DNA of 64,000 nt from an uncultured delta proteobacterium (GCA_963785235.1 CAWAUM010000013.1:1-64000), one strand, 5' to 3'; shown: positions 34,799 to 63,000, counted from the first letter of the stretch. The notes: generated by a model not told the origin, from the sequence alone. A program made the numbers and translations.

Positions 34799-36286
34799 TT
34801 AAAACATACGAAGACTATTACTGCATGCGTGAGTGTTGCTCCTGATCTTGCCTCTCAAGGTGAATCGGTCAAGCCGTTTGTGGGTTCGGATATTTGCGAA
34901 TACCGGCTCCACGATGGCCATCCTCTGCGGATAGATCCTGCGACCCTTCTCGCTCTCGATCTTCTCTATCATGACCTTGGTGAGGTTGTTGCCATCCGGC
35001 CCGATGGGCACTGCTCAAGGTTCTTCGGACCACGGCCTTTCCCATGGATGCATTTACTCTCTTACCGTGCAACCTCTGGCAGTCCTGCTCCTGTGCACCA
35101 TACACTCGATAGAGTTACCCGGTACACCGATGGCTCTTTCACTTTCAGACTCAACATCTTTCCATTGGGACACTCATACTGATTTCTCTCTTCATCATAG
35201 AGGAAGTCATTCAGCCCATAATGTGTCCTGACCGAACGCCCCTTCCTCCCCTTGAACCGGGGATCCCTTGTGCGGAACCTCTTGTCCGGTATGTACGCAT
35301 CAATCTCCTCATCCATGCATTTCTGGATATTCATCTTGCTGTGGTAACCGCTGTCTGCTGTGAACGTTGTCCCTTTAAAATAATCCCGGGAGAGACCGAT
35401 CTTATCCAGGTTCTCCATGGCCCCATCCAGCATCGGAGGAACAAGATCATGATCATGACCAGCACCAAATGCCTCTGCATGAACGATCACCTGTCTCTTC
35501 GAGTCCACAAGCGCCTGGCCGTTATACCCCTGGATAGTCCCATTGGAGGAGACCATCTTCGATGACTCGTTGTCCGTCATGTTGCTCTTGATCTCCTTGC
35601 CCTTTACCCCGAGTCGCTCCCCGTTCTCCTTCAGCCACGCCTCGATCCGGTCTGCCTGCTTCTTCAGCTTCTCGATCTGCCTGCCACGATAGGAGCGATC
35701 ATCAGGGGGAGTTGTATCATCATCGTCCTTCCGGTCTTCCTCCTCCTGCTCCTTCAGCAATACCTTCACCTTCTCCTCAAGCTTTTCCCGCTTCGCCTTC
35801 AACTCAGATACCGTCCTGCTCCACTGCGGGGAGGCATTGCATTTTAAGCTTGCACCCGTCCAGTGCGAAGAACGTCCCCCCAAGCAGGTTCATCTCCTCG
35901 CAGACCAGCAGCACATCCCTGAAACAGCGGAAGAATCTCATCCTTCATGGATCTCACGAAGGTCGATATCGTGCTGTGGTCAGGATACTGCCCACAGCTA
36001 AAGCGCCATGAACACCACGTTCTCCTTGCATGCCTGCTCTATCTTCCTCGATGATATCAGTCCTCTGGAATACCCGAGCAGACACCACCTTCAGCAGTAT
36101 CCGGGGATCGTATGCCCGCCGTCCTGTCTCATCATTCCGGTACTTCTCATCGAACAGGCTCACGTCCATCCGCTCATCCACGAGCGTATGAATCGCATAC
36201 TCCAGGCTGCCCGGCATCAGCTGTTCCTTGAGCGAAACAGGTATCAGCATGTCCTGTGCATAGGTGTAAGGTTTATACTTGGCCAT
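34799..36286 (-). mobile_element. IS1182-family transposase, fragmented and 3'-truncated
   Basis: GRRAYDPRILLK (DUF772-like), TDNES..M..GYNGQ, ADSGY, VEPVFANIR...RFTLRG; several frameshifts; terminal repeats not identified. Confidence 0.85.
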
Positions 36287-36818
36287 GGTGTCCTTTCGTT
36301 TCAGGAATCGGGAGAATAAGATAGAAATCTTTCCCTTGAAGACAATCTCATTATATCACATAACATATTGATAATAAAGAGCTAATTAACTTTTTTATGA
36401 TAATAATTGATCTGTTTAGATCTTCTAAACTCTTGGATTTTTTTAAATAAATAATCTTCATAAAACATTTGCGTAAGGAAGATTTTTCAACATTTCGCAC
36501 GGAAGTTACACTTTTTTATCAATCAATATCTGCATAGTTTTCGAGACATAATCAACGGTTTCTAAGGATAGGGGAGCCGATAATTTTATTGCATTATCAT
36601 AAGTCTGAGAAAAGTGAAGATTATTGGACATAATCTCTTATTCTTCCGCTGATAGATATCATTCAAGTATCTAATCTTTGCAGGCCAGCATTGGAGCTCA
36701 CATATATTACAGAAACCAAAGCTTTTGCAAAAGTGTCAGTGGCTTATAGAAATATGCACTTTGGTTGTCTATTCTGTAAGTTGAGATAGGCAAAGGTATC
36801 ATCGGTTCTGGATTTCCA

Positions 36819-37062
36819 CGCCACGCTGCAGTTGCGGCCGGACTGGGAAACTCCGTGTGAAACAACCTCATCATTCATCAGCGACTGGGTCCCTAAGTGA
36901 TCTTCCTCACCATACTGACCGACCTCGGGCTGCCACCGGACCCTCCTATTACCAAGGATCTCTGCATCCATTGCAACATCTGTGTGGAGAACTGCCCCGG
37001 AAGGGCGCTCGATTGAGAGAAAAAGATAGACAAATTCAAGTGCATGAAATTTTCACAGCCCT
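36819..37062 (+). pseudogene. epoxyqueuosine-reductase-like / 4Fe-4S protein remnant
   Basis: RHAAVAAGLG..*NNLIIH..LGP*...ILTD...LCIHCNICVENCPGRALD*...KC; three in-frame stops. Confidence 0.75.
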
Positions 37063-37144
37063 CTGCGCTGGGACGGAATATATAAACTGTCGTTAATAGA
37101 TGACCCTAAACCGACATGTCTTCCTTGCTTCTGACGTTTTCTTG

Positions 37145-37726
37145 CTAAAAGAATTTTTCAAATATCTTTTCAAGGTCATTAAAGTATTCCATGTCATTGG
37201 TCAAACGCCACATGGTCGTAGCACCTTCTGTAAGGTATATCATCCTTCTGGATAATTCTCTGATGTCGACATCCTCATTTATTTTTTTGTTTTTCTGAAG
37301 ACCGGATAAAAACTCGCATAAAAGGTCTTCCCATCCCTTTATTATATTTCTAAATTTTTCATCGAATTTTTCATCCAGTTCTCCAGACATGCTAAACCTT
37401 GCATTGGCTATCGGACAGCCATTATAATTTTTCAATATTTGAATGCCGGCTTTAACCGTGGATACGCTTTTATTTATAAATTCCTGGATAGTCGAACTTG
37501 AATCCATTATGGATTTCAGCCTTGCCATGGATTCATTATTGTATGAAATAAGACATTCATAAATAAGATCATCTTTTGACGGGAAATACTGGTAAAAGCT
37601 AGCTTTTGCAACCTTGGATTCTTTTATGATCTGGTTTATGCCTGTACTGTTGATTCCCTGGATGTAAAAAAGCTCTAAAGCTTTTATGATGATCCTATTT
37701 CTTACATTTGTTTCCATAATTACCAT
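37145..37726 (-). CDS. TetR/AcrR family regulator
   Basis: ALELFY.QG...TGINQII..S.VAKASFYQYFPSKDDL, GCP. Confidence 0.92.
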   Translation of the reverse strand: MVIMETNVRNRIIIKALELFYIQGINSTGINQIIKESKVAKASFYQYFPSKDDLIYECLISYNNESMARLKSIMDSSSTIQEFINKSVSTVKAGIQILKNYNGCPIANARFSMSGELDEKFDEKFRNIIKGWEDLLCEFLSGLQKNKKINEDVDIRELSRRMIYLTEGATTMWRLTNDMEYFNDLEKIFEKFF

Positions 37727-37782
37727 TTATAATGAATCAATTATTATCTCACGCAATAATTTTTAGGAACCATAATTTATTC

Positions 37783-37813
37783 TTGACAACGGACAGACAA
37801 GTCTGTCTAGTGT
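37783..37813 (+). promoter_or_regulatory. sigma70-type promoter with overlapping palindromic operator (likely TetR site)
   Basis: TTGACA at 37783; palindrome GACAGACAAGTCTGTC at 37792-37807 between divergent tetR and nitroreductase. Confidence 0.7.
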
Positions 37814-37864
37814 AAATAACAATACAATAAATAAGTTACTTCGGAAAGCAACTTTTTAATAAAA

Positions 37865-38746
37865 ATGGAGGTGCAGACCATGTTATTATCAAAACCCGTT
37901 ACTGATATTATCCGTAAGAGGTTCTCCGTAAGATCGTACATAAACGATCCCATTGAGGAAAATAAAAAAAAGAAATTAAGGGGATTTTTCCTCGAAAATA
38001 TCTCGGGACCACTGGGGTCCCAGGCGAGGTTTATACTGGTTTCGGCTTCATTGGAAGACAGGGAGGAGCTCAAAGGTCTGATATCATACGGAATGATACG
38101 GAACGTCCCCGGGTTTATCATAGGAGCTACAGGGTATGGCGAAAAAAATCTCGAGGATTTCGGGTATATGATGGAGAAGAACATCCTTATGGCGACTGAT
38201 ATGGAACTCGGCACCTGCTGGCTAGGCGCTACTTTCAATAGCAGCGGTTTTGCCAGGAAGATAAACCGCAGGGAAGACGAGATCGTTCCTGCGGTATGCG
38301 CTATAGGAAATCACAGGGAAAAAAGGACTGCATGGGAAAAAATAGTCCGAACAACCCTTGGTTCTGACAGACGCAAACCATGGGATGATCTTTTCTTCAC
38401 GGAAGGCGGTGCTTTAACCAGGGAGGAGGCAGGCAGCTACTCGTTATGCCTGGATATGGTACGCATTGCGCCTTCAGCAACCAACAATCAACCGTGGAGG
38501 ATTTTGAAGATGAAAGAGAAGAATATATTTCACTTTTATCTTCAAAGAACACTTGGTTATCAGACAATATCAAAAGCCACAGATAAAGAGGACGCGCAGC
38601 GCATGGATATTGGGGTTGCGATGTGTCACTTTGAGCTCACAGCGCTCGAGGCCGGACTTTCTGGAAAATGGCAGGTTGAATATCCGGGTATCGGACTGCC
38701 ATCAGGAAATGCGGAATACGTGGTTACATGGATCAGTGGCAAGTGA
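37865..38746 (+). CDS. nitroreductase-family protein
   Basis: RKRFSVRSY, GYMME..IL.AT..LGTCWLG, RIAPSATNNQPW, DIGVAMCHF. Confidence 0.9.
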   Translation: MEVQTMLLSKPVTDIIRKRFSVRSYINDPIEENKKKKLRGFFLENISGPLGSQARFILVSASLEDREELKGLISYGMIRNVPGFIIGATGYGEKNLEDFGYMMEKNILMATDMELGTCWLGATFNSSGFARKINRREDEIVPAVCAIGNHREKRTAWEKIVRTTLGSDRRKPWDDLFFTEGGALTREEAGSYSLCLDMVRIAPSATNNQPWRILKMKEKNIFHFYLQRTLGYQTISKATDKEDAQRMDIGVAMCHFELTALEAGLSGKWQVEYPGIGLPSGNAEYVVTWISGK

Positions 38747-38941
38747 GAGAGGATGATGCCTTTTCCCGTTATGATTTAGGTCTGTCAGAGGAATATATAA
38801 TCATTATATGAACCTCATCCCCAAGAAGCACGGAGAGGAATATTGAAGTCAGGAAAATGAATGATTTCATTAAAATTGAATTTGAATCATTTCTTTTTCA
38901 TGATTCAGAACTTTTGAATACAATCTATTGAAGGAGGTTAT

Positions 38942-39334
38942 ATGCCCAAAGAGGGATATTATAAGAAAATGTTTTTTATTGGTGCTATCTGGAACTGGGT
39001 TGCAACGTTAACATTTGCAATAGGTTGGAAATTTTTATTTCCCTTGTTCGGGATGGCATTTCCAAACTATCTGGTGTTCTACATGTTGTTCCTTGGATTG
39101 TGTTTTGTCTTCGGAATTGGCTACTTCTGGGTTTCCCGTGATATATCCAGCAACCATGGCATTGTACGCATGGGGATTATCGGCAAATTGCTGGTCTTTG
39201 CCGGGTTTCTTATTGCCTGGGTAATGGGGGAAGTGCCCCTAATCATAGTGGGCTCTGGGGTTGTAGACCTAATTTTTGCCATACTGTTCATCGAGTTTCT
39301 CAAGTCATATGGAAAGATGGAGGTGCATGGATAA
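38942..39334 (+). CDS. small 4-TM membrane protein (paralog of 40883..41293)
   Basis: GAIWN, FGIGYFWVSRD...NHGIVRMG..GK, D.IFAILF; GGAGG RBS. Confidence 0.8.
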   Translation: MPKEGYYKKMFFIGAIWNWVATLTFAIGWKFLFPLFGMAFPNYLVFYMLFLGLCFVFGIGYFWVSRDISSNHGIVRMGIIGKLLVFAGFLIAWVMGEVPLIIVGSGVVDLIFAILFIEFLKSYGKMEVHG

Positions 39335-39536
39335 AGTAATCCAGAGTATAAATTACCTTTCATAATCAACGAAAAAGAGGGGCTAAGAAAAGTGAAGATT
39401 ACATGCCAGTTATGACGTTCTGGTATGAAGTCATAGTTTTCGTATGTTTCAACACAAGATCAACGGTCTCAGTAGATTGCAAAATCTAAGGAGACTGCGA
39501 ACTAGCAGTCATCTGAAAACTTCATTAGATGTAGCG

Positions 39537-40436
39537 TCAGGAAACCATATTTCCAATAATGTCTTTGACAGGTTTGATCTCCTTTATCAGGGCACTAACT
39601 TGTCCAGCACCAGCGGGATAAAGGTCAAAATCACCTGTAGACCATGCCTTACCGGCGTTCATCATGTTGTATTCCTGTGTGAGGTCCGCACCTGCGGCCA
39701 TGAGTTTAGCCAACTTAGGATTGATAATGGTTCGCATAGCCATGCCGCCCATGGGTAACAAGGTAGTGCTTGCATCGACACAGGCTACGATAGCCTCTTT
39801 CCATGACCTGGATGCCGGACTCTCTTCGGAAGCTAATAAGGCAGTTCCTATCTGCACACCTTGAGCGCCTAGCGCCAGGGCAGCCCGGTACCCCCGACGG
39901 TCTGCGATTCCACCGGCGGCTACAACAGGCACATCGACCATGTCACAAACCAAGGGAATCAGGATCATATTGGTGGACTCAGGTCCTGTTGTGCGGAGAC
40001 CGCCTGATTCTGCTCCAGAAACAACGATCCCGTTCGCACCTGCCTCAGTGGCCTTGGCGGCTAGAGGAGCCGCAAGGATCACATGGAGGACCTTCATGCC
40101 CAGCTCTTTGATTTTTGGATATATTTTTTTAGGGGACCCTGCCGAGGTAGTCACAGTCTTAATACCAGCTTCAGCTAATACCTCGAGTATGGCATCATTG
40201 TTGGGATTCATTGCAATCATGAGATTGGCCCCAAAAGGTTTGTCGGTAAGTTCCCTGATTTCGGCAATCATCTTTCTGACCTTGCTTACATCTGAGACAA
40301 AGCCCAGAGCCAGCATACCGAATGCGCCAGCCTCGGAGACGGCTGCCACCATCTTCGGGTTGTTCAATTCACCGATGGGGCCTTGAATAATAGGATATTT
40401 ACAACCCAGGATATCTAATAGTGTGGTTTTTTCCAT
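39537..40436 (-). CDS. nitronate monooxygenase / FabK-like flavoenzyme
   Basis: YPIIQG, AAVSEAGAFG, TDKPFGANL, GAESGG, AAGGIAD, ALGAQGVQIGT, AGQV. Confidence 0.9.
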   Translation of the reverse strand: MEKTTLLDILGCKYPIIQGPIGELNNPKMVAAVSEAGAFGMLALGFVSDVSKVRKMIAEIRELTDKPFGANLMIAMNPNNDAILEVLAEAGIKTVTTSAGSPKKIYPKIKELGMKVLHVILAAPLAAKATEAGANGIVVSGAESGGLRTTGPESTNMILIPLVCDMVDVPVVAAGGIADRRGYRAALALGAQGVQIGTALLASEESPASRSWKEAIVACVDASTTLLPMGGMAMRTIINPKLAKLMAAGADLTQEYNMMNAGKAWSTGDFDLYPAGAGQVSALIKEIKPVKDIIGNMVS

Positions 40437-40597
40437 AAAGCCTCCATGAGAAACTATCGTTATCTTTCTTCAATCTGAGATTAAATCAAAAACGAATGAA
40501 TCTAACACCATGAATTAATATATAATTGAGAGAAGTTCGTTTGCAACAAAGAGATCACCTCGCATCCAAGGGCTCCTAGCTGTATATGGGGCTCCTA

Positions 40598-40861
40598 TTA
40601 TTCCAACGCTGCAGTAAAGGCTGATCCTGAATAATCTACGGTTATGGATACATTGTCGGAACTAAGACTTTTCTGTAGAGAAACATTCAATCCATTGCAA
40701 TTGAAGAGGATGTCATCGGTGTGCGGCTCATCCAGAGCTGCTTTAATAAATATCCCGGTTCAAACCGCTCCGGCAGGATATAATCTTAAAGAAGGGCGGA
40801 TAGTGTCCCTGCAAAGATTTTCGAGTTCTTTTTTCGCCTCTGGAGTAAGGTTGATCTTCAT
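40598..40861 (-). CDS. HesB/IscA-like selenoprotein (UGA at codon 34, 40762-40760)
   Basis: GAGG RBS; MKINLTPEAKKEL...LRLYPAGAV-U-TGIFIKAALDEPHTDD...GLNV...TVDY; SECIS-like hairpin GCAGCTC-TGGAT-GAGCCGC at 40741-40723. Confidence 0.75.
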
Positions 40862-40882
40862 ATATAACCTCTCATTTTGCAA

Positions 40883-41293
40883 TTATACAATGCGTCTGTT
40901 CTCTTCCTGTTTCTCTCCACGCAGCGCAGAAAGGAAAAGAATTGTCCATATGAAATCTCCCAATCCTCCTAGAAAAGCAAAGGTTGTTATCTGTCTACGG
41001 AAATAAAGGCGGGCAAAAGTGAGAAAGATGATCACTTTGGCCAGGCATCCCATCCAGATGATGCCCTGGTTCTTGTCCGGATCTCGTGACACGAGGTAGT
41101 AACCCAAGCCAAAGACACCCACTGCCCCCCAGAAGAATGCAAAGAATGTCCGTGGCAGAATCCCCGTAATTATATTCTTGGATCCGGATATCAGCCACAT
41201 GGTGAGGCTGGGCATCACCAGGCCATTGAATGCGAAACCAAAATTCCATAGGGAACCCCAATAATAGATTTGCTTCCGAGTTCCAATCTTCAT
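40883..41293 (-). CDS. small 4-TM membrane protein (paralog of 38942..39334)
   Basis: GSLWN, FGLGYYLVSRD...NQGIIWMG..AK, GDFIWTILF. Confidence 0.8.
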   Translation of the reverse strand: MKIGTRKQIYYWGSLWNFGFAFNGLVMPSLTMWLISGSKNIITGILPRTFFAFFWGAVGVFGLGYYLVSRDPDKNQGIIWMGCLAKVIIFLTFARLYFRRQITTFAFLGGLGDFIWTILFLSALRGEKQEENRRIV

Positions 41294-41449
41294 GAGATCT
41301 ATCCCCCCTTATAATCTCCCTCAAAGGTGTTTTGAATAATAATTCCATATTATAGGATAATAAAACCAAGTATAAAGTTGTCAATTCATATTGTCTAATG
41401 AAATGATCAGGACAAAGAACATCAGTACGTCAAGTATAGATTTCGTGCT

Positions 41450-41533
41450 AAGGCCAATGGTTATTCAAAGAGCATAGATTTCTTTTATAATCATCGCAAA
41501 AGACGGGCATTGAAAATCATAGATTTCATGCCA
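41450..41533 (-). repeat. dispersed repeat family B, copy 1
   Basis: AAGGCCAATGGTTATTCAAAGAGCATAGATT...ATAATCATC...GGGCAT...ATAGATTTCATGCCA, similar to 48831-48916. Confidence 0.75.
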
Positions 41534-41652
41534 TACTTGGTGCTCAGAGCATGTAGCGTGAACACCATAGATTAGAAAATATTATCTCCGGCCCCTGCTA
41601 TGATCAAGATTCAATGGAGGTATACCCTCTTGAATGAATACCTGAGATCACT

Positions 41653-42471
41653 TCATCCCTCCGGCCCTTTATAGACACGGTTTATCTGAAAATCTATGAT
41701 TGCACGGTTGATCGATGGAAACCACCTACCTGTCATTTCAATGAACCTGGCTATGAATCCGGGTATTATAAGGAAACGATCTTTTTGTATGCCCTTAATT
41801 ACTTCATCTGCCACTACGTCAAGAGAGAGAACAGGGACAGTTTGCGTAACGACACGATTCTCTGTTGTACGATAGGTATTCAAATCATCCACCATGGGTG
41901 ATTCAAACTCACCAGGACATACAAGGTGGAACTTGATATTCAGGGGCTTGAGCTCCGCACGAAGGACATCGGTCAATCCGACGATAGCAAACTTGGAAGA
42001 ACAGTAAGCGGCATATCCAAACGTTCCGATCTTGCCTCCTAGGGAAGAGATATTTACTATTCTGCCCTGACCTTTCTTCCTGAAGATGGGTATTATAGCC
42101 TTGGTACAGTTCAGCACGCCGAAATAATTGATATCCATGACTTCCCGGAAGATCGATATAGGGAGCCTTTCAAAGTAACCTTCTCTGAGGATACCTGCGC
42201 TATTGATAAGGATATCCGGCAAGCCAAAAGTATCTGTAATGGTGTTTAGAGTCTTCTCTGTCGCGGTATAATCGGAAACATCACATGGGAATATCTCAAT
42301 TCTCTGACCGGCTATGCATATTGCGGATAACTCATCCTTGACCCTTGCCAGCTTATTCTTGTCCCTTGCGATGAGTGCAAGGTTAGCCCCACTCTTTACG
42401 AGTCGTTGAGCAAGGGCTCTTCCCAGTCCACTTGAGCCACCTGTAATGACAATAATCGAGTCCTTGAACAT
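41653..42471 (-). CDS. short-chain dehydrogenase/reductase, 3-ketodihydrosphingosine-reductase-like
   Basis: ITGGSSGLG, LINSAG, MDINYFG, FGYAAYCSSKFA. Confidence 0.85.
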   Translation of the reverse strand: MFKDSIIVITGGSSGLGRALAQRLVKSGANLALIARDKNKLARVKDELSAICIAGQRIEIFPCDVSDYTATEKTLNTITDTFGLPDILINSAGILREGYFERLPISIFREVMDINYFGVLNCTKAIIPIFRKKGQGRIVNISSLGGKIGTFGYAAYCSSKFAIVGLTDVLRAELKPLNIKFHLVCPGEFESPMVDDLNTYRTTENRVVTQTVPVLSLDVVADEVIKGIQKDRFLIIPGFIARFIEMTGRWFPSINRAIIDFQINRVYKGPEG

Positions 42472-42549
42472 AAAGGTCTCCCCTCTTGTGCTAAAGTTGT
42501 CATGAACCTATTTAAGATATGTTTTGCAACCCTTCCCATTTATTAAGAG

Positions 42550-43524
42550 TTATATCTTGCTACTGCTTCCGGCAACGGCAGGTACACCATAGGACTTCAT
42601 TACCTCAACGAGAGATAAGATATTTTCCTCCCATACCTTCCGTTCAGTAGTCTGGACCCCAACCATCCCATAACCCAACCCAAGAGATTCATATTTTTCA
42701 ACACCCAATTGACGGTATGGAAGAAGCTGAACTTGAGTTACCCGGTTGTCCAGTTTGTCCCTGATGAATCCAGCTGTTGCTTCGATATTCTCCCTACTGT
42801 CATTGTGACCCGGAACTATGGGTATACGGATAATAAGCGGCTTGCCCTTCTTGGCGATGCTCAGGATATTTTTCAGAATACATACATTGTCCACACCGGT
42901 GTACTCCTTGTGTTTCCCGGGATCCATATGCTTGATATCGGTAATTATGAGATCTGCATAGGGAGCCACCTTAGCCAAAATGCCTGGATGAATAGCAAGT
43001 TCTGTTTCCATACACGTATGAATACCGTGTCTTTTACATTCTTTGAGTATCGCCCGGGTAAATTTCCATTGTATCAGCGGATCGCCTCCCGACAGGGTAA
43101 CCCCTCCACCGGAGTTTTCATAGAACTCGATGTCCGACATCACTACGTCAATGATATCATCAACGGAATATGTTTTTCCCCAGACCATGAGGGCATTCGC
43201 CGGGCAGACATCTGTGCATTTCAGGCAATCTGTACAGATATCCCGGTTGATCCCGGAAATTTTTCCTTCCTGTATCGAAAAGATCTGTTCATTTCCAAGA
43301 GGACAAGAGGAAAGACATTGGCCACATACTTCGATGCCGATGCAACGTGAAGCATACACACCTACTTGTGGATAGGCCTTCAAACTCTCCGGATTGCTGC
43401 ACCATTTGCAATGGAGTGGACATCCTTTGAGAAATATCTCTGTTCTGATACCAGGACCATCGTGGATGGTAAATCTTTGGATGTTAAAAACATAACCCTT
43501 GATGCGATTCTTGCTGGTCCCCAT
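42550..43524 (-). CDS. glycyl-radical enzyme activating protein (radical SAM + ferredoxin insert)
   Basis: IQRFTIHDGPGIRT..FLKGCPLHCKWCSNPES, extra CxxC-rich motifs, GGGVTLSGGDP. Confidence 0.95.
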   Translation of the reverse strand: MGTSKNRIKGYVFNIQRFTIHDGPGIRTEIFLKGCPLHCKWCSNPESLKAYPQVGVYASRCIGIEVCGQCLSSCPLGNEQIFSIQEGKISGINRDICTDCLKCTDVCPANALMVWGKTYSVDDIIDVVMSDIEFYENSGGGVTLSGGDPLIQWKFTRAILKECKRHGIHTCMETELAIHPGILAKVAPYADLIITDIKHMDPGKHKEYTGVDNVCILKNILSIAKKGKPLIIRIPIVPGHNDSRENIEATAGFIRDKLDNRVTQVQLLPYRQLGVEKYESLGLGYGMVGVQTTERKVWEENILSLVEVMKSYGVPAVAGSSSKI

Positions 43525-43627
43525 CCTGTTAACCTCTCTTGCAAACTGGTCCTATAAGTGATCCTGACATTCACTTGAGGCTGCTGCAGTTTGTTCAACC
43601 ACAGCCTCAAGTGATATGTCTGCGGAT

Positions 43628-46179
43628 TTATTCAAAGGAGAGTTCAGTCCTCCCCATAATGTCATACTGCAGCGGTTTGCTCAGTTCTACAAAGTAAGCA
43701 CTGTAGCCTGCTACTCTTACCAGCAAGTGTTTATATTGATCAGGATTTGCTAGTGCGCATTCCATGGTTTCCCTGCTTATTATATTGAACTGGCTGTGCA
43801 TCCCTTTTCTGTTGAAATAGACATCGAGAAGTGAAATCAGGTTGTCACGGCCTGATTCCCCAGCCACGCAGGTGGGGGTGAACTTCCAGTTGAGCAAGGT
43901 CCCATTTCCTGCTCGTATATGATCAAGCTTAGTGACTGATTTCGCCATAGCGCTTGGCCCTTTGATGTCATGTGATCCGGCCCATGTATGGACAGGCCCA
44001 AGACAATCGGAAACTGGCTCAAGCGCCTTTCTACCGTCGGGAGAAGCCCACTGTACAAGACCCATTGCGACATTGCATGAGACCGAATACACCCCGGGAA
44101 CATACTTACCGCCACGGGCATTGGGCCTGTCTTCGACGTGTTTGCAATAGGTATCGTATCCGAATTTTGCAAGTTCATCTGCATAGTCGTCATCGTTACC
44201 GTAGTGGTGCACTTTATCGCTGTTCACAAGAGCATACAGAGCCTCATGCCCGACCCAGTTGTCCTCGATGGCTTTGAGCAGCTTATCAGCTGTGATTTTC
44301 TTCTCCTCAAATACAAGTTGCTTGATGGTAGCAAAACCATCTGCTACGGTTCCAACCCCTACAGCCTGGGGACCGGTAAAATTGTAATGGGCTCCACCGG
44401 CTGACACATCTATGCCCTTCTCCGTACAATCATCAATGAGTGTAGACAAGTATGGGAGGGGCTTGAGGCGCTGGTGAACACGATCCATGATCTCTATGCC
44501 TTCAACCATCAGATCGACCCAGTATTTCATCTGCTTGTCATACGCATCAAGCACCTGGTCGAAGGATGTAAAATCAGTCAGGCTTCCTGTTGAAGGACCA
44601 ATCTTCTTCCCGATGCCGCCACAGACATCCCATCTGGGGCAATGCTGTCCGCACCCGATGCAACGGCCGTCGTTGATGGCCAGCTCCAAAATCTTTGATG
44701 TGCTGAAATAGGCTGCGTCATGCCAGCCGTACTCCTTCCCCCCAGCATCAATTTCCACGCACCCGACCACATGGTAATTCCGGGAGTCTTCCAGTGTTCT
44801 CCCAGAACGAAGAGATGCAGGTATAGCAGCCTGATCGTTAAACACCTTGGGCTGGCCGGTACCGATGCGAATAACGTTTGCTGTCTTGATTTTCAGCTCC
44901 CGGGGTGTTTTTTCATGCCACCTGACAGCAAACCATGGGACTCCAAGCCGGGTATGAGCATGTGCATCGAGTAACATGAATGTCAGATCATTTGTGGCAT
45001 CGTTTCCCTCTGAGTCAACACCACCGACCGTCAATGTATCTCCGCCCATACCTCTACCCGAGTTCGGTATCACTGTCAGACGGTCTCTAAGCTTGGTCCA
45101 CCAGATATGCTTGATGAAGTAGATCTCAAGGAGTTCCTGGATCGTCTCTTTTGTGGCATATCCACTTTCTATGTCTTTTTGATAAAAGGGGTATAAGTAT
45201 TGATCAATTCTTCCTATGGAGACTGAGTGGCCATTAGACTCGATCAGTACAATCGTGGTAGCAATGAACATGAGTTGGAGCGCCTCCCAGATAGAACGTG
45301 GAGGACTTTCCGACACCCAGTCACAGTTCGAGGCTACCTGCTCCAGGTCTTTTCTGCGTAGAATGTTTTTCTCTTTCCGTGCCATCTCCCTGGCAAGAGA
45401 CGCATATCGTCTCAGATAATTGGATGCTGCTTCAAGGGAGATCAACTCGGCCTGGTAGAATTCCTTCTTCCTGAGATCCTCGTTATGTGACCCTGCCAAC
45501 GCACCCATCTTCTCAATCACTTGCTTCTTGATGCCGCCGAAGCCAAGGGCGAAAAGTTTTTCGAAATTCGGCTGTAGATGGCCTATACCACCATACATGT
45601 AGAGGTTCAGAAGATAAATCCCCCGCCCCACGTGTGTTCCTTTTTCTGGTCCTCAGACATTTCGGCGAGGATAGCCTCCTCAATTGTTTTCCCCTTCCAG
45701 AACTCTTCTATCTCTTTGAGCTTCTTTGTCGACTTCTTCTGCGTATAATATTTATCATGCAAACGCTTGTTCAGAGGATGATTCTTTATCTCGTCCATGA
45801 CCCACGCATAGGAATGTTCAGGGAAAATCGGGGCGGATTTAATGGGTGCTGCCATCTCACCCACAATGAGCTCATCCTCTGTGATGCTAATGTTTACATT
45901 TTTGAGCACATGAGCTAGAGCCAAAGCGCACTTCATTATTTGGGGCTCGTCCACATACTTCCTGTATGCCTCGGTCACAAGGCACGCTCTCTGGTCGTCC
46001 ACTGTAAATTCCTGCGCATGGACATATGATAGGAAACGGTTGACCCTGGGAAAGGGAGAGGGGTTCTCGTCCATTCCAGACAGGGCGATGGGCCACTCCT
46101 TGTCATAAGGGATCAAGCCTATTGGTTTTGATTTTACAGTACCGGCTTTCTCCGGGGTCTGTACTTTTTCTGTGATCAT
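43628..46179 (-). CDS. glycyl radical enzyme (non-PFL, GCVE type; frameshift near 45620)
   Basis: DELIVG, ESNGHSVSIGRIDQY, VGCVE Cys loop, NGTLLN.KF, QFN, LLVRVAGYSAYF; ~850 codons in total. Confidence 0.93.
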
Positions 46180-46283
46180 GGTATGCCTCCTGTATTCTGA
46201 TTGTCTGATTTATCTGTGAGATTGTCCTGATACGTACAATTCAGCTGGATTAAGTCTCTGCCTACTCGATTTCAGCATAATGT

Positions 46284-46646
46284 TCACTGTGCCATCATTT
46301 TCGACAGGGCTGCGGAAAACCACATAAATTCCTTGAAATTGCCCTCGATGATTAGCTTCTTCTCAGTGAGCGCAGCCAGTGAAGCCTCATCATTTTTACA
46401 GGTCATCACCTTGAAACCTGTGTCAGCATCACACCAGACCATGGCTACATCGCTTTTCTCACGATTTCCAGGACTTGAAGAGATGCTTCCTTTGTTGAAC
46501 ACATAGACACGCCCTTGGTCGCTCTTCGTGGTTTTAATTGCGACCTTGAGTTTCTTGTTCTGGATGTACTCCCTGAAAGCCTTGTTCTTCTTCGCAGCCC
46601 ATTTCAACTTACCGTACAGTATAAGGAGTAAAAGCTTGAATTTCAT
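46284..46646 (-). CDS. SCP2 sterol/lipid-carrier-like small protein
   Basis: ~120 aa, ..F.KG.ISS.PG...DVAM...DADT...ALTEKKLIIEGN...MWF pattern typical of the SCP2 fold. Confidence 0.65.
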   Translation of the reverse strand: MKFKLLLLILYGKLKWAAKKNKAFREYIQNKKLKVAIKTTKSDQGRVYVFNKGSISSSPGNREKSDVAMVWCDADTGFKVMTCKNDEASLAALTEKKLIIEGNFKEFMWFSAALSKMMAQ

Positions 46647-46685
46647 AAGACACCCCCTTTTTTTCTTGAAACGTATAAGAATCAT

Positions 46686-46701
46686 TACAATATGCATACC
46701 A
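46686..46701 (-). promoter_or_regulatory. possible sigma54 promoter of the GRE operon
   Basis: Minus strand TGGTATGCATATTGTA (GG-N10-GT, imperfect), next to a bEBP gene. Confidence 0.4.
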
Positions 46702-46841
46702 GGTGTTCTGGACGTAGGTGGTAACTGTTTATTATCTTGATATACCTAACATTATTACGTTTAGATGGGTTGAATCTTATTTTTTGAAAAAAGAATAAAC
46801 AACCATATTTGGTGGTTCTACTAAATATAGTTAAAAATGAT

Positions 46842-48452
46842 CTATGTATCCGATGATGACCTTCGCTGAATAGATATTCCAAGCTTCCGCATACGGCCTC
46901 TCAGTGTGTTCGGGTGTAATCCGAGAAGGGTTGCAGCTCCCTTTGCGCCATCGATTCTCCAATCTGTTTTTTCGAGAATCTTGAGGATATGGCGTCTTTC
47001 AATTTCAGAGAGATTCGTGATGGACGGTTCTTCATTAGAGCATGACCCTGGATCTTCGAGCTTTTCACTAAGATGGAGGGTATTACCACTGGTGATGATA
47101 ATGGCACGCTCGATTACATGCTCCAGTTCCCTCACATTACCTGGCCACGTGTAAGATCTCAGTCCCGTCATCGTCTGCTTAGGAATGCTATTGATCTCTT
47201 TGCGCATCTTCCTGGCGAATTTCATTACAAAATGCTCGACCAGGAGAGGAATATCCTCTTTCCGCTCTCTCAAGGAAGGAATGGTGATGGGAAAAACATT
47301 CAGGCGATAGTAAAGGTCTTGGCGGAAGCGCCCTTTCGATGCCTCTTCTTTGAGATTCCTGCTCGTAAGGGCAATGATACGTACATCAACCTTAATGGTT
47401 TTAGGACTGCCAAGTCGTTCGAACTCTCCATCCTGTATAGCTCTTAGGAGCTTAGCCTGCAACTCCAGGGGAAGCTCTGCAATCTCATCAAGAATTATCG
47501 TACCTTTATCAGCAAGCTCGAAACGTCCAATTTGTCTGCTGGAAGAGCCTGTGAATGCACCTTTTTCCCTTCCAAACAACTCGCTTTCAATTAAATTGGG
47601 AGGAAGGGCTGCACAGTTCACGATCACCAATGGGTGATTCTTCCTGGGGCTAAGGTCGTGAATCGCACTAGCGATCATTCCTTTTCCTGTTCCCGTTTCA
47701 CCAAGCACGAGTACTACTGAATCAGTGGGAGCTACCTGCTCCATCCGGAAAAAAACATGTCTAATCGTAATACTCTGCCCGACGATATTATGATATGCGC
47801 GCTCATTTTCAGTCTCTTGGCGTAGGTTTATCTTCTCTATATGGCCCTGTTTGCTGAAGCTCTGCATCTCTTGTAGGGCTGATTCATACTTTTCTTCCAT
47901 TTTCTTGCGGTGCAATGCACTGGTGATTATCTCTCCGGCGAGCTTTAGCCTGGGAATGAGCTCAGCCGGGAAATGTCTTTCCTGTCTCATACATGCAAAG
48001 GACAGCCCGCAGATGGGCTTGCCAGCAACCCTATATGGAATGACAATAACTGATTTCTCACCTATTGCCCGGGAAGACTCTTTGTCCACCGATGCTTCTT
48101 CTGGTAATTCTTCATGTCGGCTGAAGCATACAGTCTCATCATTTAATGCCTTCTTAAAAAGCCATGGGAAGTGTTCGGTGGTGATACTGGGAGGAAAGTT
48201 CTTGAACCCAGGGACAGTGTATTGGTGTGTCCACCGTGCCTCAGTCTGGTTTTCCGACAACTCCCAAAAGGTGCAGCGGTCTAAATCGAGACATTTAGCA
48301 ATTCGCTTCAATCCCCATTCAATCTCCTCATCGACCTCACTGGCAGGGGTGTTGGCGAACTGGGTTGAAATCTCTGATAGTAATTTATCGAGTTCGAGAG
48401 ACTGCTTCGGGCTTATGCCCATTAATGAAGATGTCGAAGCTTTATTCTTCAT
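46842..48452 (-). CDS. sigma54-dependent activator (GAF + AAA+ + Fis HTH; FhlA/NifA-like)
   Basis: GETGTGK, ESELFG.EKGAFTG, LDEI, QAKLLR, DLYYRLNVFPI, WPGNVRELE. Confidence 0.95.
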   Translation of the reverse strand: MKNKASTSSLMGISPKQSLELDKLLSEISTQFANTPASEVDEEIEWGLKRIAKCLDLDRCTFWELSENQTEARWTHQYTVPGFKNFPPSITTEHFPWLFKKALNDETVCFSRHEELPEEASVDKESSRAIGEKSVIVIPYRVAGKPICGLSFACMRQERHFPAELIPRLKLAGEIITSALHRKKMEEKYESALQEMQSFSKQGHIEKINLRQETENERAYHNIVGQSITIRHVFFRMEQVAPTDSVVLVLGETGTGKGMIASAIHDLSPRKNHPLVIVNCAALPPNLIESELFGREKGAFTGSSSRQIGRFELADKGTIILDEIAELPLELQAKLLRAIQDGEFERLGSPKTIKVDVRIIALTSRNLKEEASKGRFRQDLYYRLNVFPITIPSLRERKEDIPLLVEHFVMKFARKMRKEINSIPKQTMTGLRSYTWPGNVRELEHVIERAIIITSGNTLHLSEKLEDPGSCSNEEPSITNLSEIERRHILKILEKTDWRIDGAKGAATLLGLHPNTLRGRMRKLGISIQRRSSSDT

Positions 48453-48830
48453 ATTGGGGCCTTGAGAACATGCTCCATGATATGTAGAGTACTTTCTTCA
48501 CTTCTTTGTTATATCACTCTTATGCCTGATATAGAACATTTGTAAGATAAAACCACTAGAACATTTCAATGCAGGCTTCAAGAAAACAAGTTCACATGTC
48601 TTAATAATACATCTAACAGACTAATATTAAACATGTTATATTTCCCCTATATCTGTATAGATAAAGCTATTGTGATTAGATTGTGCAAAGATAAAAAGAT
48701 TACATCAGGAGATCTCACTTCAACAGGCTAACTCATGTATGAAATTATTCAGGGGCATCTGATTCAATCCAAAGTATAGATTTCTGCAAAAATGATCGGT
48801 TTCACAAGACCTGAAAAACTAAGGATTGAA

Positions 48831-48916
48831 CCAAGGCCAAAGGTTATTCCAGAGCATAGATTACTATTCATAATCATCAGAAATGAGGGGCATGGAAGAG
48901 TATAGATAACATGCCA
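48831..48916 (-). repeat. dispersed repeat family B, copy 2
   Basis: CCAAGGCCAAAGGTTATTCCAGAGCATAGATT...ATAATCATC...GGGGCATG...ATAGATAACATGCCA. Confidence 0.75.
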
Positions 48917-49147
48917 GTTCACACGGTTTCTGATTATTGAGTGTTTCTATCCATAATCAACGCTTTACCCAAAGTGAACATAACTGCGATAACTCATCGT
49001 TCTTCATTTTTACAGACTAACCATAGATCTCTGTTCAAAACTTACTACTCTCCTCTGATCAAGGGAGAGGGTTTTCCACCCGTACTTTTTGAAGCTTGCT
49101 TGGATTTATAAAGCCTATGGTTCGGAACGGACAACCACCCGGCTTCC

Positions 49148-49750
49148 CTATTCTTCCCGCCTGCGCATCCGGGTAACAAAACGCTCCCACCTGGGCGGAC
49201 CGGGAAGGCGGTGGGGGGTTACGGCCTCGCTGACAAAACGCACGTCCTCCACAGAATAGAAGGCCTGGGGGTTGTGCTGCTTGATTATGTCAACGATGTG
49301 TTCGATATTGCTGCGCTCCACAATGGAGAAAATGACCTTCACCGGTCCGGTGACACCTTCGGCATCGATGATGGTCAGCCCGTATCCTGCAGACCTGAGA
49401 TAGGTGATGAGGTCATCCGAATCCCTACGGGTGATGATGCGGATGATCACCTTTCCGATGGAAAGTTTGTTTTCTATGATGACTCCTACAAAATTCCCAG
49501 TGGCAAATCCTGCCGCATAGGTCACGAAACATACGGGATTTCCCATGTGCTGAAAGATCTGGCGTATGACCATGAGCCAGATGAGCACCTCGAAGAATCC
49601 GATAATAGACGCATAGTACCTGAGATTTCTGTTGATGAAGATAATGCGGACCGTATCCAGGCTTACGTCCATAACGCGGGCAAAGAAGATGAGTAAAGGC
49701 AGTATAAACCATGTGTACATCATAGAGTCGAAGAATGCCGGCATAGCCAT
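49148..49750 (-). CDS. UPF0316/DUF2179 family membrane protein
   Basis: IFFARVMDVSL.TVR, GFFEVLIW, YAAGFATGNFVG, GYGLT.IDAEG, AFYSVEDVR. Confidence 0.88.
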   Translation of the reverse strand: MAMPAFFDSMMYTWFILPLLIFFARVMDVSLDTVRIIFINRNLRYYASIIGFFEVLIWLMVIRQIFQHMGNPVCFVTYAAGFATGNFVGVIIENKLSIGKVIIRIITRRDSDDLITYLRSAGYGLTIIDAEGVTGPVKVIFSIVERSNIEHIVDIIKQHNPQAFYSVEDVRFVSEAVTPHRLPGPPRWERFVTRMRRREE

Positions 49751-49980
49751 TTCCCTCTCAGCTCGATACCTGTCAGCTCTAAGAAAACTTTTGCCTCATG
49801 CGGCCTGTGATAAGAATGTATCACTTATTGTGGAGAATGGGAACACCCCCTAAGATTTACAAAATATTGCAAAACAACTCGCAGGGTGATAAGATTATTG
49901 AGATGCTTCTCCTGGAAGCGAGAGACTTTCTTGCGGGTGGCATAGGGAAATGTACCCATGACAGTTCATTGGAGGTTTAC

Positions 49981-50949
49981 ATGGCAAAACGTTCATTCCG
50001 GATTGCCGGATGGCTCCTGATTCTTTCAAGCTTTGTGTTCCTGTCCGGTTGTGCACACAAGGCGCCGATCGAGCAACCCACGGGTTCCTATTTGGAGGAT
50101 ATTTATGCAACTGCCAATACGAACCCCGATGTGGAAATGTTCAACTCGGCCATGCCCCCATACCTCCAGTACATGGACAATCTCATCCTGCCTGTTTCTC
50201 CTGATTTACTATACTACAGGTTATCCGGGGCATATTACGGGTATGCCTTCTGCTTCGTTGAGGACACCGACAAGAAGGAGGCAAGTTCCCTTTACCTCAA
50301 GGGACGAGATTATGCCCTGACCGAGCTAAAACGTTACAGGATCTTCTTTACCGCCATGACCTATGAAAGCACTATCCTGGAATTCAAAGCGTCCCTGCCT
50401 GCCAGTTTCGACAAGAAGCACATTCAAGGCCTCTACTGGGCTGCCATGAACTGGGCCGGATGGGTGAACCTCAACCTTGCTACGCCGGAAGCCCTGGCAG
50501 ACATACCCAAGGTGGAGGCCATGCTTGAGTTTGTCATTCTGCTCGATGGGTCGTATAACAGCGGCAGCGCATATGCGGCACTTGGCGCCCTGCATGCAAG
50601 CCGGACCAAAGAACAAGGCGGAAACCCCGAGAGGGCCAAGGATGAGTTCGACGCTGCCTTCACCTACTCCGGCAACAGCATCCTTCTTTTCCATGTCATG
50701 TATGCCCAGTACTATGCCATCCAGATCCAGGACAAGGAGCTGTTCAGGAAGACGCTGACGACAGTCCTTGAAACACCTGCAAACACCTACCCGGACAAGA
50801 CCTTTATGAACGAAGTGGCCAGGAAAAAGGCAAAGGTGCTCCTGGATAACATTGATAAGTATTTCAAACCGGTTGAAATAAAAAAGCCGGCTGAAATACA
50901 GAAGACTGAAGAATCCGTGACTACTCCCCAGCCGAGCGAAACAAAGTGA
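49981..50949 (+). CDS. TatT-family (TPAT/TRAP T-component) lipoprotein
   Basis: Lipobox LSGC, YYGYAF.FVE, LYLKGRDYA, LYWAAM.W, GGNPERAK..F, YAQYYA, N.VA..KA..LL. Confidence 0.78.
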   Translation: MAKRSFRIAGWLLILSSFVFLSGCAHKAPIEQPTGSYLEDIYATANTNPDVEMFNSAMPPYLQYMDNLILPVSPDLLYYRLSGAYYGYAFCFVEDTDKKEASSLYLKGRDYALTELKRYRIFFTAMTYESTILEFKASLPASFDKKHIQGLYWAAMNWAGWVNLNLATPEALADIPKVEAMLEFVILLDGSYNSGSAYAALGALHASRTKEQGGNPERAKDEFDAAFTYSGNSILLFHVMYAQYYAIQIQDKELFRKTLTTVLETPANTYPDKTFMNEVARKKAKVLLDNIDKYFKPVEIKKPAEIQKTEESVTTPQPSETK

Positions 50950-58517: not shown

Positions 58518-59726
58518 ATGAAGTATATCCATGCTTTTAATAACTTGGTGGAGAAGAAAAAGATCTATCCTGATTTCCCCGTTATTGACGGCGGGGCAAG
58601 CCCTGAAGTTGTTGTGAATGGAAAAAGGTTATTGATGTTCTCTTCCAATAATTACCTGGGTCTTACATCCCATCCCAGAATAAGGAGCGGCCCATGAGGC
58701 TATTGAAAAATACGGGACAGGTTCGGGGGGTTCCCGCCTCCTATCCGGAAACCTCAAAATCCATGAAGAGGCAGAACGAAAAATTGCCGCCTTTAAGGGC
58801 GGAGAGGCTGCCATTATCTTCCCCACGGGTTATTCAGCGAATGTCGGTGCCATCTCAGGGTTCCTCGACCTGCTGAAGATTTCTCCCCGTTATTTCTTCA
58901 TGAGAAGATGCATGGTTTTTTCCGACGACTTGAATCATGCAAGCATTATTGACGGGTGCAGATTGAGCGGGGCAAAGACCGTGGTGTATCCTCACAAGGA
59001 TATGGATGTTCTGGAAGCAAAGCTGAAACGCCATCGCGCCGGCGCAAGCTTATCATAACCGACGGTGTCTTCAGCATGGATGGTGATATCGCCCCCCTTG
59101 ATCAGATAGCATACCTGGCGAAAAAATATGATGCGGTCACCATGGTGGATGAAGCCCATGCCACAGGCATTCTCGGGACTCATGGACACGGTACTATTGA
59201 GCATTTCCACCCGAAGCCCTTGAAGGACATTGCCATCATAATGGGGACTTTCAGCAAATCCGTCGGAGCCGTGGGCGGGTATGTCGTAGGATCACATGAC
59301 CTGATACATTATCTCAGGGTAGCTTCCCGGTCGTATATGTTCTCGGCAGCCATGCCCCCGGCCACTGCTGCAACCATTATTGCCGCAATCGATCTCATGG
59401 AAAGCGACCCGACCTTAAGGACGAAGTTATGGGAGAATACCAACCATTTGAAGGAAGGGTTTAACGATCTGGGATTCAATACCTTTTCCAGCGAGACCCA
59501 GATCATCCCCATACTGATCGGCAAAGACGATAAAGGGGTGGAATTCTCCCGGCGCCTGGTTGACTACGGGATATACGGGCCATGCGTCAGATGGCCTGCG
59601 GTAACAAGAAACCAGTCCAGGATCAGATTTACCGTAATGGCCTCCCACACCAGGGAGCAGATCGATTATCTTCTTGATTGCTGCAGGTCTTTAGGGAGTA
59701 AGATGAACGTGTCTATGGGGAAATGA
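58518..59726 (+). CDS. alpha-oxoamine synthase, serine palmitoyltransferase-like (frameshifts near 58685 and 59035)
   Basis: IYPDFP.I...EVVVNGK..LMFSSNNYLGL, GSGGSR.L.G, NHASIIDG, DGVFSMDGD, DEAH, GTFSKSVG. Confidence 0.8.
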
Positions 59727-60550
59727 AAATGAAGGATTTTCTTGATAAAAACGTCTATATTACCGGCGGATCTACCGGTATCGGTCTTTCCACTGCCAAG
59801 CTCCTGGCGGCAGCGGGGGCCAACGTCATCATCTCCGCCCGGACAAAAGAAAAACTTGAAACAGCCATGGAAGAGATCGAGAGCCGCCGCATCTTACAGG
59901 CGCAGCGTTTCGCCTTCCGTCAACTCGACGTGGCGGACAATACAGAAGTGAACATTGTCATGACTGAGGCTGTTCAAAACTTCGGCATCCCGGACCTCCT
60001 CATTAATAATGCCGGGCGGGCCCTGCCACGCTGTTTCGAGGAAGTCACCTTCGCGCAGTTCGACGAGACCATGAAGACCAACCTCTACGGCAGCTGGAAT
60101 ACCACCACGGTCCTCATCCCGTACATGAAGCCCGGGGGCGGAGCAATCGTCAATGTGTCCTCCCTGTGCGGCTTCATGGGGGTCTTCGGCTATACGGACT
60201 ATTGTGCCTCGAAATTCGGCATCATCGGCCTCTCGGAGGCGCTCAGGCAGGAACTGCGGCGCTACGATATCACGGTTTCCGTACTCTGCCCTCCCGATAC
60301 CGACACACCGGGATACGCCACAGAAAACATCTGTAAACCTGAGGTGACCAGGGCGCTTTCGGCCGCAGCCAAGATCATGCAGCCGGATGAAGTTGCCAGG
60401 GAGCTTGATCGAGGGATCAAACGCAAGACCTTCATCATTATCCCCGGTGTGGACGGAAAATTCATCTATTTCATGAAGCGGCACTTCCCCTTCATCGTGG
60501 AGCTGATTATGCGTCGGGGTATCTGCAAGGTACAGAAGGGGAGCGTATAG
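59723..60550 (+). CDS. 3-ketodihydrosphingosine reductase-like SDR
   Basis: ITGGSTGIG, GVFGYTDYCASKF, PPDTDTPGY..EN..KP..T..LS (KDSR/TSC10-like signature); overlaps the SPT-like stop. Confidence 0.8.
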   Translation: MKMKDFLDKNVYITGGSTGIGLSTAKLLAAAGANVIISARTKEKLETAMEEIESRRILQAQRFAFRQLDVADNTEVNIVMTEAVQNFGIPDLLINNAGRALPRCFEEVTFAQFDETMKTNLYGSWNTTTVLIPYMKPGGGAIVNVSSLCGFMGVFGYTDYCASKFGIIGLSEALRQELRRYDITVSVLCPPDTDTPGYATENICKPEVTRALSAAAKIMQPDEVARELDRGIKRKTFIIIPGVDGKFIYFMKRHFPFIVELIMRRGICKVQKGSV

Positions 60551-60561
60551 CCAGTTCAACA

Positions 60562-61488: not shown

Positions 61489-61539
61489 CCGGGGTGTTCC
61501 GGTTAGACGAAAGGCCCCTGGTAGCTCCGGCACGTCTTA

Positions 61540-62809: not shown

Positions 62810-62974
62810 ATGAGACAGACCATAAATGCCACCCAGGCTGTAAGAACCTTTTCGGAGCTTCTCAATGAGATTAAATACAAGGGAACGACATATACCATAG
62901 AGCGATCAGGTAAACCTATTGCATGTTATCTACACATTTGCATGCCCCTCTTTTTCGATGATTATGAAAAATAA
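62810..62974 (+). pseudogene. Phd/YefM-type antitoxin fragment, no toxin
   Basis: INATQAVRTFSELLNEI...YTIERSGKPIA, then runs into repeat family B. Confidence 0.7.
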
Positions 62975-63000
62975 TGGCCTGGAATAACTATTGGCTCTGG
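62921..63000 (+). repeat. dispersed repeat family B, copy 3 (inverted)
   Basis: GCATGTTATCTA...CATGCCCCTC...GATGATTATGAA...TGGAATAAC..TTGGC matches the reverse complement of 48831-48916. Confidence 0.7.

Follow-up and report, generated by a model that had tools for sequence, protein, structure and literature searches.

A 2026 review (PMC13450708, section 5.6.1) treats six C-O-cleaving glycyl radical enzyme (GRE) eliminases, all of which act on small polar molecules. The closest described systems to the locus reported here are (i) the B12-independent glycerol dehydratase (GD; 1R8W/1R9D), (ii) the GRE-type 1,2-propanediol dehydratase (PD; 5I2A/5I2G, 9RCO), and (iii) HpfG, the (S)-2,3-dihydroxypropane-1-sulfonate (DHPS) dehydratase found with its activase HpfH in Klebsiella oxytoca, Hungatella hathewayi and Enterococcus gilvus. 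H. hathewayi is named as an HpfG user in PMC12330013, and no HpfG structure has been solved (PMC13450708). Section 4.2 of that review describes GRE small subunits as iron proteins only, those of benzylsuccinate synthase (BSS), methylalkylsuccinate synthase (MASS) and 4-hydroxyphenylacetate decarboxylase (HPAD) being high-potential iron-sulfur protein- or rubredoxin-like; it nowhere mentions SCP2 or sterol carriers. Accessory factors with an SCP2 fold have been documented in a hydrophobic pathway for UbiJ and proposed for UbiT (10.1101/587956). Here we describe a GRE whose gene is paired with that of a stand-alone SCP2-fold protein. The locus lies at positions 41653..48452 of a 64,000-nt stretch (the window) from an uncultured delta proteobacterium (GCA_963785235.1 CAWAUM010000013.1:1-64000).

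We confirmed five genes at this locus, all on the minus strand: a sigma54-dependent activator (bacterial enhancer-binding protein, bEBP), a 120-aa open reading frame (ORF), the GRE, which is split over two frames, its activase and a short-chain dehydrogenase/reductase (SDR). Their coordinates and shared orientation agree with an earlier note on this DNA. The conserved unit is (TetR)-SCP2-GRE-activase.

The GRE carries the single-Cys VGCVE loop and the RVAGY motif, both as the earlier note had read them. Its pyruvate formate-lyase (PFL)-like barrel carries a Gly loop and a single-Cys CXE motif, and, as in diol-dehydratase-type enzymes, its cognate radical SAM activase is encoded next to it. By sequence and by fold, its best matches in the Protein Data Bank (PDB) were GD and PD. 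The fold comparison used a model of the homologous protein from locus L001 (84% identical to the window GRE, pLDDT 91.1), which matched the GD and PD structures with a TM score of 0.90 at 37-39% identity. Identity as PFL, fumarate-adding enzyme, decarboxylase, CutC, HypD or HpsG was rejected, given the missed cut-offs of the family hidden Markov models (HMMs) and the single Cys. The full-length L001 protein reached 581 of 1100 on the HypD model, 491 of 1000 on HpsG, 460 of 1050 on CutC and 364 of 1100 on IAD. A microcompartment-associated GRE was rejected as well.

Relatives were collected by a genome scan, which gave 211 related stretches; the best 80 were reduced to 78 loci, and trees were built with FastTree using SH-like supports. 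The window GRE fell in a clade of 29 rows (SH-like support 100), with identities of 69-84%. The hosts include Smithella, Syntrophaceae, Syntrophomonadaceae, Desulfobacteraceae and Leptospiraceae, which are groups of fatty-acid oxidisers, besides Desulfosarcina, Spirochaetota and others. One member is in culture, Desulfosarcina widdelii PP31 (locus L025). These data support the assignment of the GRE, from its sequence, as an uncharacterised GCVE-type 1,2-eliminase, as had been suggested, and place it in a separate clade beside HpfG, the closest characterised relative, which the earlier note had overlooked. We found no literature on this clade in a search that mostly left subscription journals outside.

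The relation to HpfG was assessed against loci with HpfG gene context (activase, GRE, TauE and Fe-dependent alcohol dehydrogenase (Fe-ADH), e.g., H. hathewayi L068), and the reference is thus not the assayed K. oxytoca sequence. These loci formed a separate clade within the same superclade. Identity inside the HpfG group was 81-86%, versus ~50% to the window clade (L068 and L078). HpfG (NF048009) was nevertheless the best NCBIfam model for the window GRE, whose two halves scored 152 + 944 bits. All six full-length clade members tested passed its cut-off of 1000, with 1092-1142 bits, and two database entries are already named HpfG. The HpfG-context enzymes scored 1720 (L068) and 1702 (L078). 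The cut-off is loose, because two more distant sister enzymes with other pockets, L035 and L049, also passed it (1020 and 1027). On the HpfH model (NF048008, cut-off 500), activases of the clade scored 390, 406 and 392, versus 591 for L068; the window activase (390.5) was above the cut-off of TIGR02494, with 343.8 bits. An HpfD orthologue was found neither in the 29 clade genomes, several of which are incomplete, nor in the window's genome (best match 40%), and the latter had no HpfE/TauE-like match. The earlier note would have abandoned a new activity if the GRE clustered with a characterised class and kept its residues. This came out in part: the HpfG cut-off is passed, but the HpfG pocket and operon are not kept. 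Judged from the sequences, the clade is not HpfG by phylogeny, pocket, activase or operon. If the name is wrong, calling its members DHPS dehydratases through the HpfG cut-off would inflate counts of organosulfur cycling in sediment metagenomes. Further unstudied sister clades of HpfG (L035, L040, L049, L054, L062, L072 and others) have different pocket loops and often tandem GRE pairs.

The 120-aa protein had no Pfam or NCBIfam match. Its AlphaFold2 model (pLDDT 92.8) gave Foldseek matches which, among those listed down to an E-value of 0.02, were SCP2 proteins or SCP2-containing alkylsulfatases. In a VIA comparison it aligned with human SCP2 with a Z-score of 11.8 and an rmsd of 2.7 Å over 110 residues. 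The top ten structural matches, with Z from 11.8 to 7.7, were SCP2 proteins, UbiJ-SCP2 and alkylsulfatase SCP2 domains. An ESM Atlas match also gave the SCP2 fold, and the relatives P0049, P0050 and P0076 passed Pfam PF02036. By its model the protein has an SCP2 fold, a five-stranded sheet flanked by helices. It resembles UbiJ and UbiT as an SCP2-fold accessory protein beside enzymes of hydrophobic substrates (6H6N, Z 9.4), but shares only ~10% identity with them, and its partner is a GRE in a presumably catabolic operon.

The SCP2 gene lies directly 5' of the GRE gene in 28/28 full-length clade loci, a count that leaves out the incomplete L006. It was found at this place in none of the 49 other, sister loci, of which 42 extend at least 600 bp upstream. 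The reverse search gave a GRE next to the SCP2 gene in 35 of 38 metagenome loci, the other three ending at a contig edge. The SCP2-like partner read from the window is thus a real SCP2 fold by model, and its linkage to the GRE is complete wherever it can be judged. In 27 of 28 clade loci the GRE is followed by the activase gene, the exception being L005, whose sequence stops after the GRE. The gain of the SCP2 gene coincides with the root of the clade, because the sister GREs L032/L033, which have a TetR gene and nearly the same loop, lack it. As in BSS, MASS and HPAD, a small gene always accompanies the catalytic subunit. Here, however, the fold of the small protein is that of SCP2, none of its Cys is invariant (best column 20/34), and it is known as a partner from gene linkage. 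Among the 16 proteins scanned around the locus we found no bacterial microcompartment (BMC) shell and no Fe-S small-subunit gene, in line with the earlier reading.

The active site was compared in 102 rows at least 68% identical to L001 (loci and database proteins, partly redundant), with GD numbering taken from alignments to 1R8W and 5I2A. The GD residues His164, His281, Ser282, Cys433, Glu435, Asp447 and Tyr640 are kept in 101-102 of these rows; we take His281, Ser282, Asp447 and Tyr640 to have roles in the diol site. Roles in the pocket are presumably held by Tyr339/Ser642 in GD and by Phe344/Val696 in PD. At Ser642 the clade has Val, like PD, and in all 102 rows Tyr339 is replaced by Gly, Phe333 by Asn and Tyr336 by Arg. 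Relative to GD and PD, the clade thus has Gly for Tyr339/Phe344 and further differs in Asn156 to Leu, a one-residue loop insert and a Cys-rich insert; the module has an SCP2 partner and lacks BMC and ADH genes. In the seven HpfG-context rows, Gly at Tyr339 and Arg at Tyr336 are found too, but Phe333 is replaced by Arg, and Ser643, which is Ser in the clade (102/102), by Asn. Of the three HpfG-context pocket residues (Arg, Arg and Asn at Phe333, Tyr336 and Ser643), which we infer to bind the sulfonate, the clade keeps one. A polar triad, Asn370/Arg373/Ser698 in L001 numbering, is invariant in the clade, and the clade-specific hydrophobic residues L190, L191, W357 and W358 stand against Q, T, N and P in HpfG-context enzymes. 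The catalytic roles of GD His164, Cys433 and Glu435 are described in PMC13450708. The dehydration machinery is intact; C-O elimination is likely and deamination is not. The C3 pocket is, in these alignments, enlarged relative to GD and PD, as in HpfG, but with one positive charge fewer. A four-Cys insert is present in 182 of 198 aligned rows, the HpfG-context enzymes among them, and is lacking from GD and PD in the alignments; it may form a metal site built into enzymes of the HpfG superclade.

Together, these residues make it quite probable that the enzyme dehydrates a terminal vicinal diol to an aldehyde by radical chemistry. With the GD mechanism as template (PMC13450708 section 5.6.1), the activase would install the glycyl radical on the GRE, and the Cys thiyl radical would abstract H from C1 of the diol. 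Glu would deprotonate the C1-OH and His would assist the departure of the C2-OH as water, leaving the aldehyde. The opened C3 pocket (Tyr339 to Gly, Phe333 to Asn), with one Arg, points to a substrate HOCH2-CHOH-CH2-X, with a large X on a polar or singly anionic link. The SCP2 protein, from its fold and the UbiJ/UbiT precedent, would hold or deliver a greasy substrate, or tether the enzyme to the membrane. Remnants of glycerolipids, such as a monoalkyl glycerol ether, a monoacylglycerol or a lyso-lipid head, would be the most likely substrate class, or else long-chain 1,2-diols or 1,2,3-triols. An aldehyde:ferredoxin oxidoreductase (AOR) may oxidise the aldehyde, or an ADH encoded elsewhere may reduce it, and beta-oxidation would take up the chain. 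We hold the joint reading, an SCP2-assisted dehydratase acting on an amphipathic 1,2-diol, tentatively, at a little under an even chance. The kept diol residues, the complete SCP2 linkage, the fatty-acid-oxidising hosts, a second GRE family with a fused SCP2-like domain and an SCP2-ThDP lyase module in clade genomes (see below) speak for it. If true, it would extend GRE chemistry to membrane-derived diols and give syntrophs and sulfate reducers a route for the anaerobic breakdown of glycerol-ether or long-chain diol lipids in oxygen-free sediments. The system can be tested: it looks soluble, has two components and is present in the cultured D. widdelii PP31. A search for literature linking GREs with SCP2 or sterol carrier proteins, mostly outside subscription journals, gave nothing on topic.

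Several observations weigh against a lipid-like substrate. Nothing at the locus names the substrate, because no catabolic or transport gene adjoining the module is conserved in the clade loci examined. HpfG, which acts on a small polar substrate, has the same Gly at Tyr339 and Arg at Tyr336, and the sisters L032/L033 combine the near-identical loop and TetR with no SCP2 gene. GRE active sites are described as buried and narrow in scope (PMC13450708, section 4.3). SCP2-like folds also occur in Eis acetyltransferases, and the same SCP2-like family is fused to, or stands beside, enzymes not evidently related to lipids. It forms N-terminal fusions to ~1000-aa pyrogallol-hydroxytransferase-like molybdopterin enzymes and to beta-hydroxyacid dehydrogenases (L103, L106, L109, L110, L116; P0058, P0075, P0076, P0096), and lies beside Fe-ADH/AOR and LarA genes. 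A conserved module of SCP2, Fe-ADH and AOR was seen at L047:11489-15074, directly 3' of the GRE module, and in L097-L099, L101 and L218.

Some of these points suit a dehydratase whose diol is small, polar and singly anionic but not DHPS, e.g., 3,4-dihydroxybutyrate or a glycerophosphodiester, with the SCP2 protein as a structural or membrane-tethering subunit that carries no substrate. The invariant polar triad, the descent of the clade beside HpfG and the basic SCP2 protein (pI 9.8), of a family that accompanies varied enzymes, agree with it. We consider it unlikely, since no transporter or aldehyde-processing gene is conserved and hydrophobic residues have replaced Q, T, N and P of the HpfG-context enzymes. 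That the clade is a divergent HpfG, turning DHPS into 3-sulfopropionaldehyde as automatic annotation has it, would explain the passed cut-off, the two database names and the shared Gly339, Val642, Arg336 and four-Cys insert. It is nevertheless improbable in view of the far higher scores of the HpfG-context enzymes under a loose cut-off, the ~50% identity, the exchange of the pocket Arg and Asn for Asn and Ser, the activases below the HpfH cut-off, and a gene context with SCP2 and TetR in place of HpfD and HpfE.

The earlier note had favoured a sphingoid base or other amino alcohol, deaminated or dehydrated by the GRE, with the SDR as the partner redox step. The second-best paralogue of the SDR in the genome (37.5%) does lie in a cluster with an AONS/SPT-like gene, and SDRs of the same type adjoin SCP2-fused GREs in this genome and, within ~2.7 kb, in four clade genomes. 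CutC has Asp at the GD His164 position and Thr at the GD Asp447 position. The window clade keeps the His164, His281 and Asp447 of hydroxyl-leaving dehydratases, the activase is followed by an SDR in none of 24 clade loci, and TSC10 is only the 40th PDB match of the SDR, so that there is little chance of an amino-alcohol substrate. The same radical 1,2-elimination would also serve an ether or ester lyase that expels an alkoxide from C2, e.g., from a dialkyl glycerol ether, to give an aldehyde and a long-chain alcohol, and the SCP2 partner and the sediment hosts would fit. With the residues around the C2 hydroxyl as in GD and the space opened at C3, the chance of this is slim.

The pairing of SCP2 with GREs is not limited to this clade. 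Two SCP2-fused GREs are encoded in the same genome on contigs C12 and C7, their SCP2-like domain being recognised by hhalign with a probability of 70-73%. They resemble the window system in joining SCP2 and GRE, often with a TetR of the same subfamily and a similar SDR close by. They differ in having 27-30% identity to the window GRE, and they fall outside the HpfG superclade in the FastTree tree, on long branches. In the alignment to 1R8W, the C12 copy lacks His281, Ser282, Asp447 and Tyr640, and it probably catalyses a different reaction. The SCP2-GRE pairing appears to have arisen twice, because the fused family is a distant clade outside the superclade. None of the best 120 of 6230 L001 homologues (606-866 aa) was an SCP2 fusion. 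The fused family was found in 13/29 clade genomes, 0/15 sister-GRE genomes and 32/401 phylum genomes; it is also present in 19 of the 24 genomes that belong to the window's own family, and the confounding of these co-occurrence counts by kinship weakens the case for a lipid-related link. Of the two fused loci (L196:6402-9374 and L197:6318-11900), one is divergent from a glycerol-3-phosphate dehydrogenase-like gene, and the other, which reads split, belongs to a TetR, GRE, activase, SDR cluster.

The nearest SCP2 paralogue (45%) precedes a thiamine diphosphate (ThDP) enzyme; among solved structures, this enzyme best matches 2-hydroxyacyl-CoA lyases and benzaldehyde lyase. The SCP2-ThDP lyase-ZnADH module was found in 13/29 clade genomes (from 21 second-tier SCP2 sites) and in 10/401 phylum genomes, counts that ignore kinship. 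In the window's genome (L079:4494-9813, G000:C10) it comprises TetR, an extended SDR, the SCP2 paralogue, the ThDP lyase-like enzyme and Zn-ADH, and it is conserved in Thermodesulfobacteriota and Spirochaetota. In another cluster (L202:1523-11575, G000:C1), a 2-hydroxyacyl-CoA dehydratase-like pair and its activator are encoded together with a double-SCP2 protein, an SDR and a member of the same TetR subfamily. AOR has seven homologous places in the genome and adjoins the GRE module in L047, L165 and L188. A broader picture is possible but speculative: the window system would be a two-component GRE in which SCP2 is a new type of small subunit, feeding a membrane-derived diol (glycerol ether remnant, long-chain polyol) to the buried site. 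It would belong to an unrecognised anaerobic lipid-breakdown network in which several families (two GRE clades, ThDP lyase, Fe-ADH/AOR) each recruited an SCP2 partner.

The SDR and the bEBP were rejected as core genes, as neither is conserved in the clade. In the 24 clade loci whose DNA extends at least 1 kb past the activase, no SDR was found behind it. An SDR (26-35% identity) stood upstream in two clade loci, and a close orthologue occurred in 1/44 genomes, on a different contig. The SDR is thus no conserved pathway member, contrary to what had been proposed. Its description as KDSR-like was also too strong: TSC10 was the 40th of 125 PDB matches (93.9 bits), although aligned further than most (residues 8-247). 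Its placement is not wholly random, because SDRs of the same paralogue type adjoin SCP2-fused GREs, 3' of the one on C7 and in the four clade genomes mentioned, and occur in the AONS/SPT-like cluster. That cluster (window 58956-62667) consists of an AONS/SPT-like aminotransferase fragment, the SDR paralogue and a PAP2_3 protein, with a GNAT gene on the opposite strand; we take it to resemble a bacterial sphingolipid synthesis cluster.

A TetR gene is present in 23/28 clade loci, and the bEBP stands where relatives have TetR. Elsewhere the bEBP was found with the module in no more than two metagenome loci, both near-identical (96%), so sigma54 control is not supported as a clade feature. Locally it is plausible, though stated too firmly in the earlier note. 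The bEBP is there and rpoN is present in the genome, but the promoter is an imperfect -24/-12 site, GG-N10-GT versus the consensus GG-N10-GC, kept in L159/L160. The pattern, which was widened to allow T after the site was seen, matched 0.8% of 5000 spacers after shuffling.

The frame break in the GRE is most likely an assembly error, because related contigs carry an extra base, relatives are intact and other GREs of the same assembly are also split. The extra base was found in three of the four runs compared (three studies), the fourth barely covering the site. Near relatives have a single GRE ORF of 841-852 aa, with L159/L160 and L001-L003 in frame. The frameshift noted earlier at 45620 lies at about 45641-45645. 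That this GRE copy is a pseudogene, as the break in the assembly might indicate, is hardly credible against these comparisons. The features of the locus are listed in Table 1.

Table 1 Features of the SCP2-GRE locus, in window coordinates.
Feature	Position	Strand	Remarks
Sigma54-dependent activator (bEBP)	46842..48452	-	Pfam Sigma54_activat and HTH_8; AAA+ with GAFTGS variant, Fis helix-turn-helix; local
Stand-alone SCP2-fold protein, 120 aa, pI 9.8	46284..46646	-	Fold by model; conserved partner gene of the GRE clade
GRE, ~850 aa, diol-dehydratase type, sister clade of HpfG (predicted)	43628..46179	-	Two ORFs in the assembly: 46179-45607, 45646-43628
Frame break in GRE	45641..45645	-	One base missing in a homopolymer run (five A, coding strand)
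Specificity loop IPNSGRGMGG	45041..45070	-	Asn at GD Phe333, Arg at GD Tyr336, Gly at GD Tyr339; alignments to 1R8W, 5I2A; invariant in 102/102 clade rows
Cys loop GCVE (GD Cys433/Glu435)	44753..44764	-	
Four-Cys insert CxxCxxxCxxxxxC	44621..44662	-	Possible metal site; in 182 of 198 aligned rows
Glycyl radical loop RVAGY	43703..43717	-	
GRE activating enzyme, radical SAM with ferredoxin insert	42550..43524	-	Conserved part of the module
Classical SDR	41653..42471	-	Local addition, not kept in the clade
Candidate sigma54 promoter TGG-N8-TTGT	46687..46701	-	~40 bp 5' of the SCP2 start; T replaces the usual -12 C

Within window 36000-50000 there was no Rfam match at gathering level, and scans for sigma70 promoters and terminators were close to the shuffle level. 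A weak fluoride-riboswitch match (25.3 bits, gathering threshold 34) inside a DUF5698 gene at window 49421-49495 is probably due to chance. A dispersed intergenic repeat of ~85-200 bp, with no Rfam match, occurs at window 39337-39411, 41436-41580, 48770-48960 and 62917-62995. Two of these copies flank the activator-to-SDR block; a locus-specific repeat was ruled out, as ~20 more copies are scattered over contigs C1, C3, C5, C7, C9, C12 and C13. Broken transposase-like ORFs, presumably IS1182-like, lie at window 35065-36286. Two paralogous small membrane proteins with no Pfam match are encoded at window 38942-39334 and 40883-41293, and three further copies are present in the genome.

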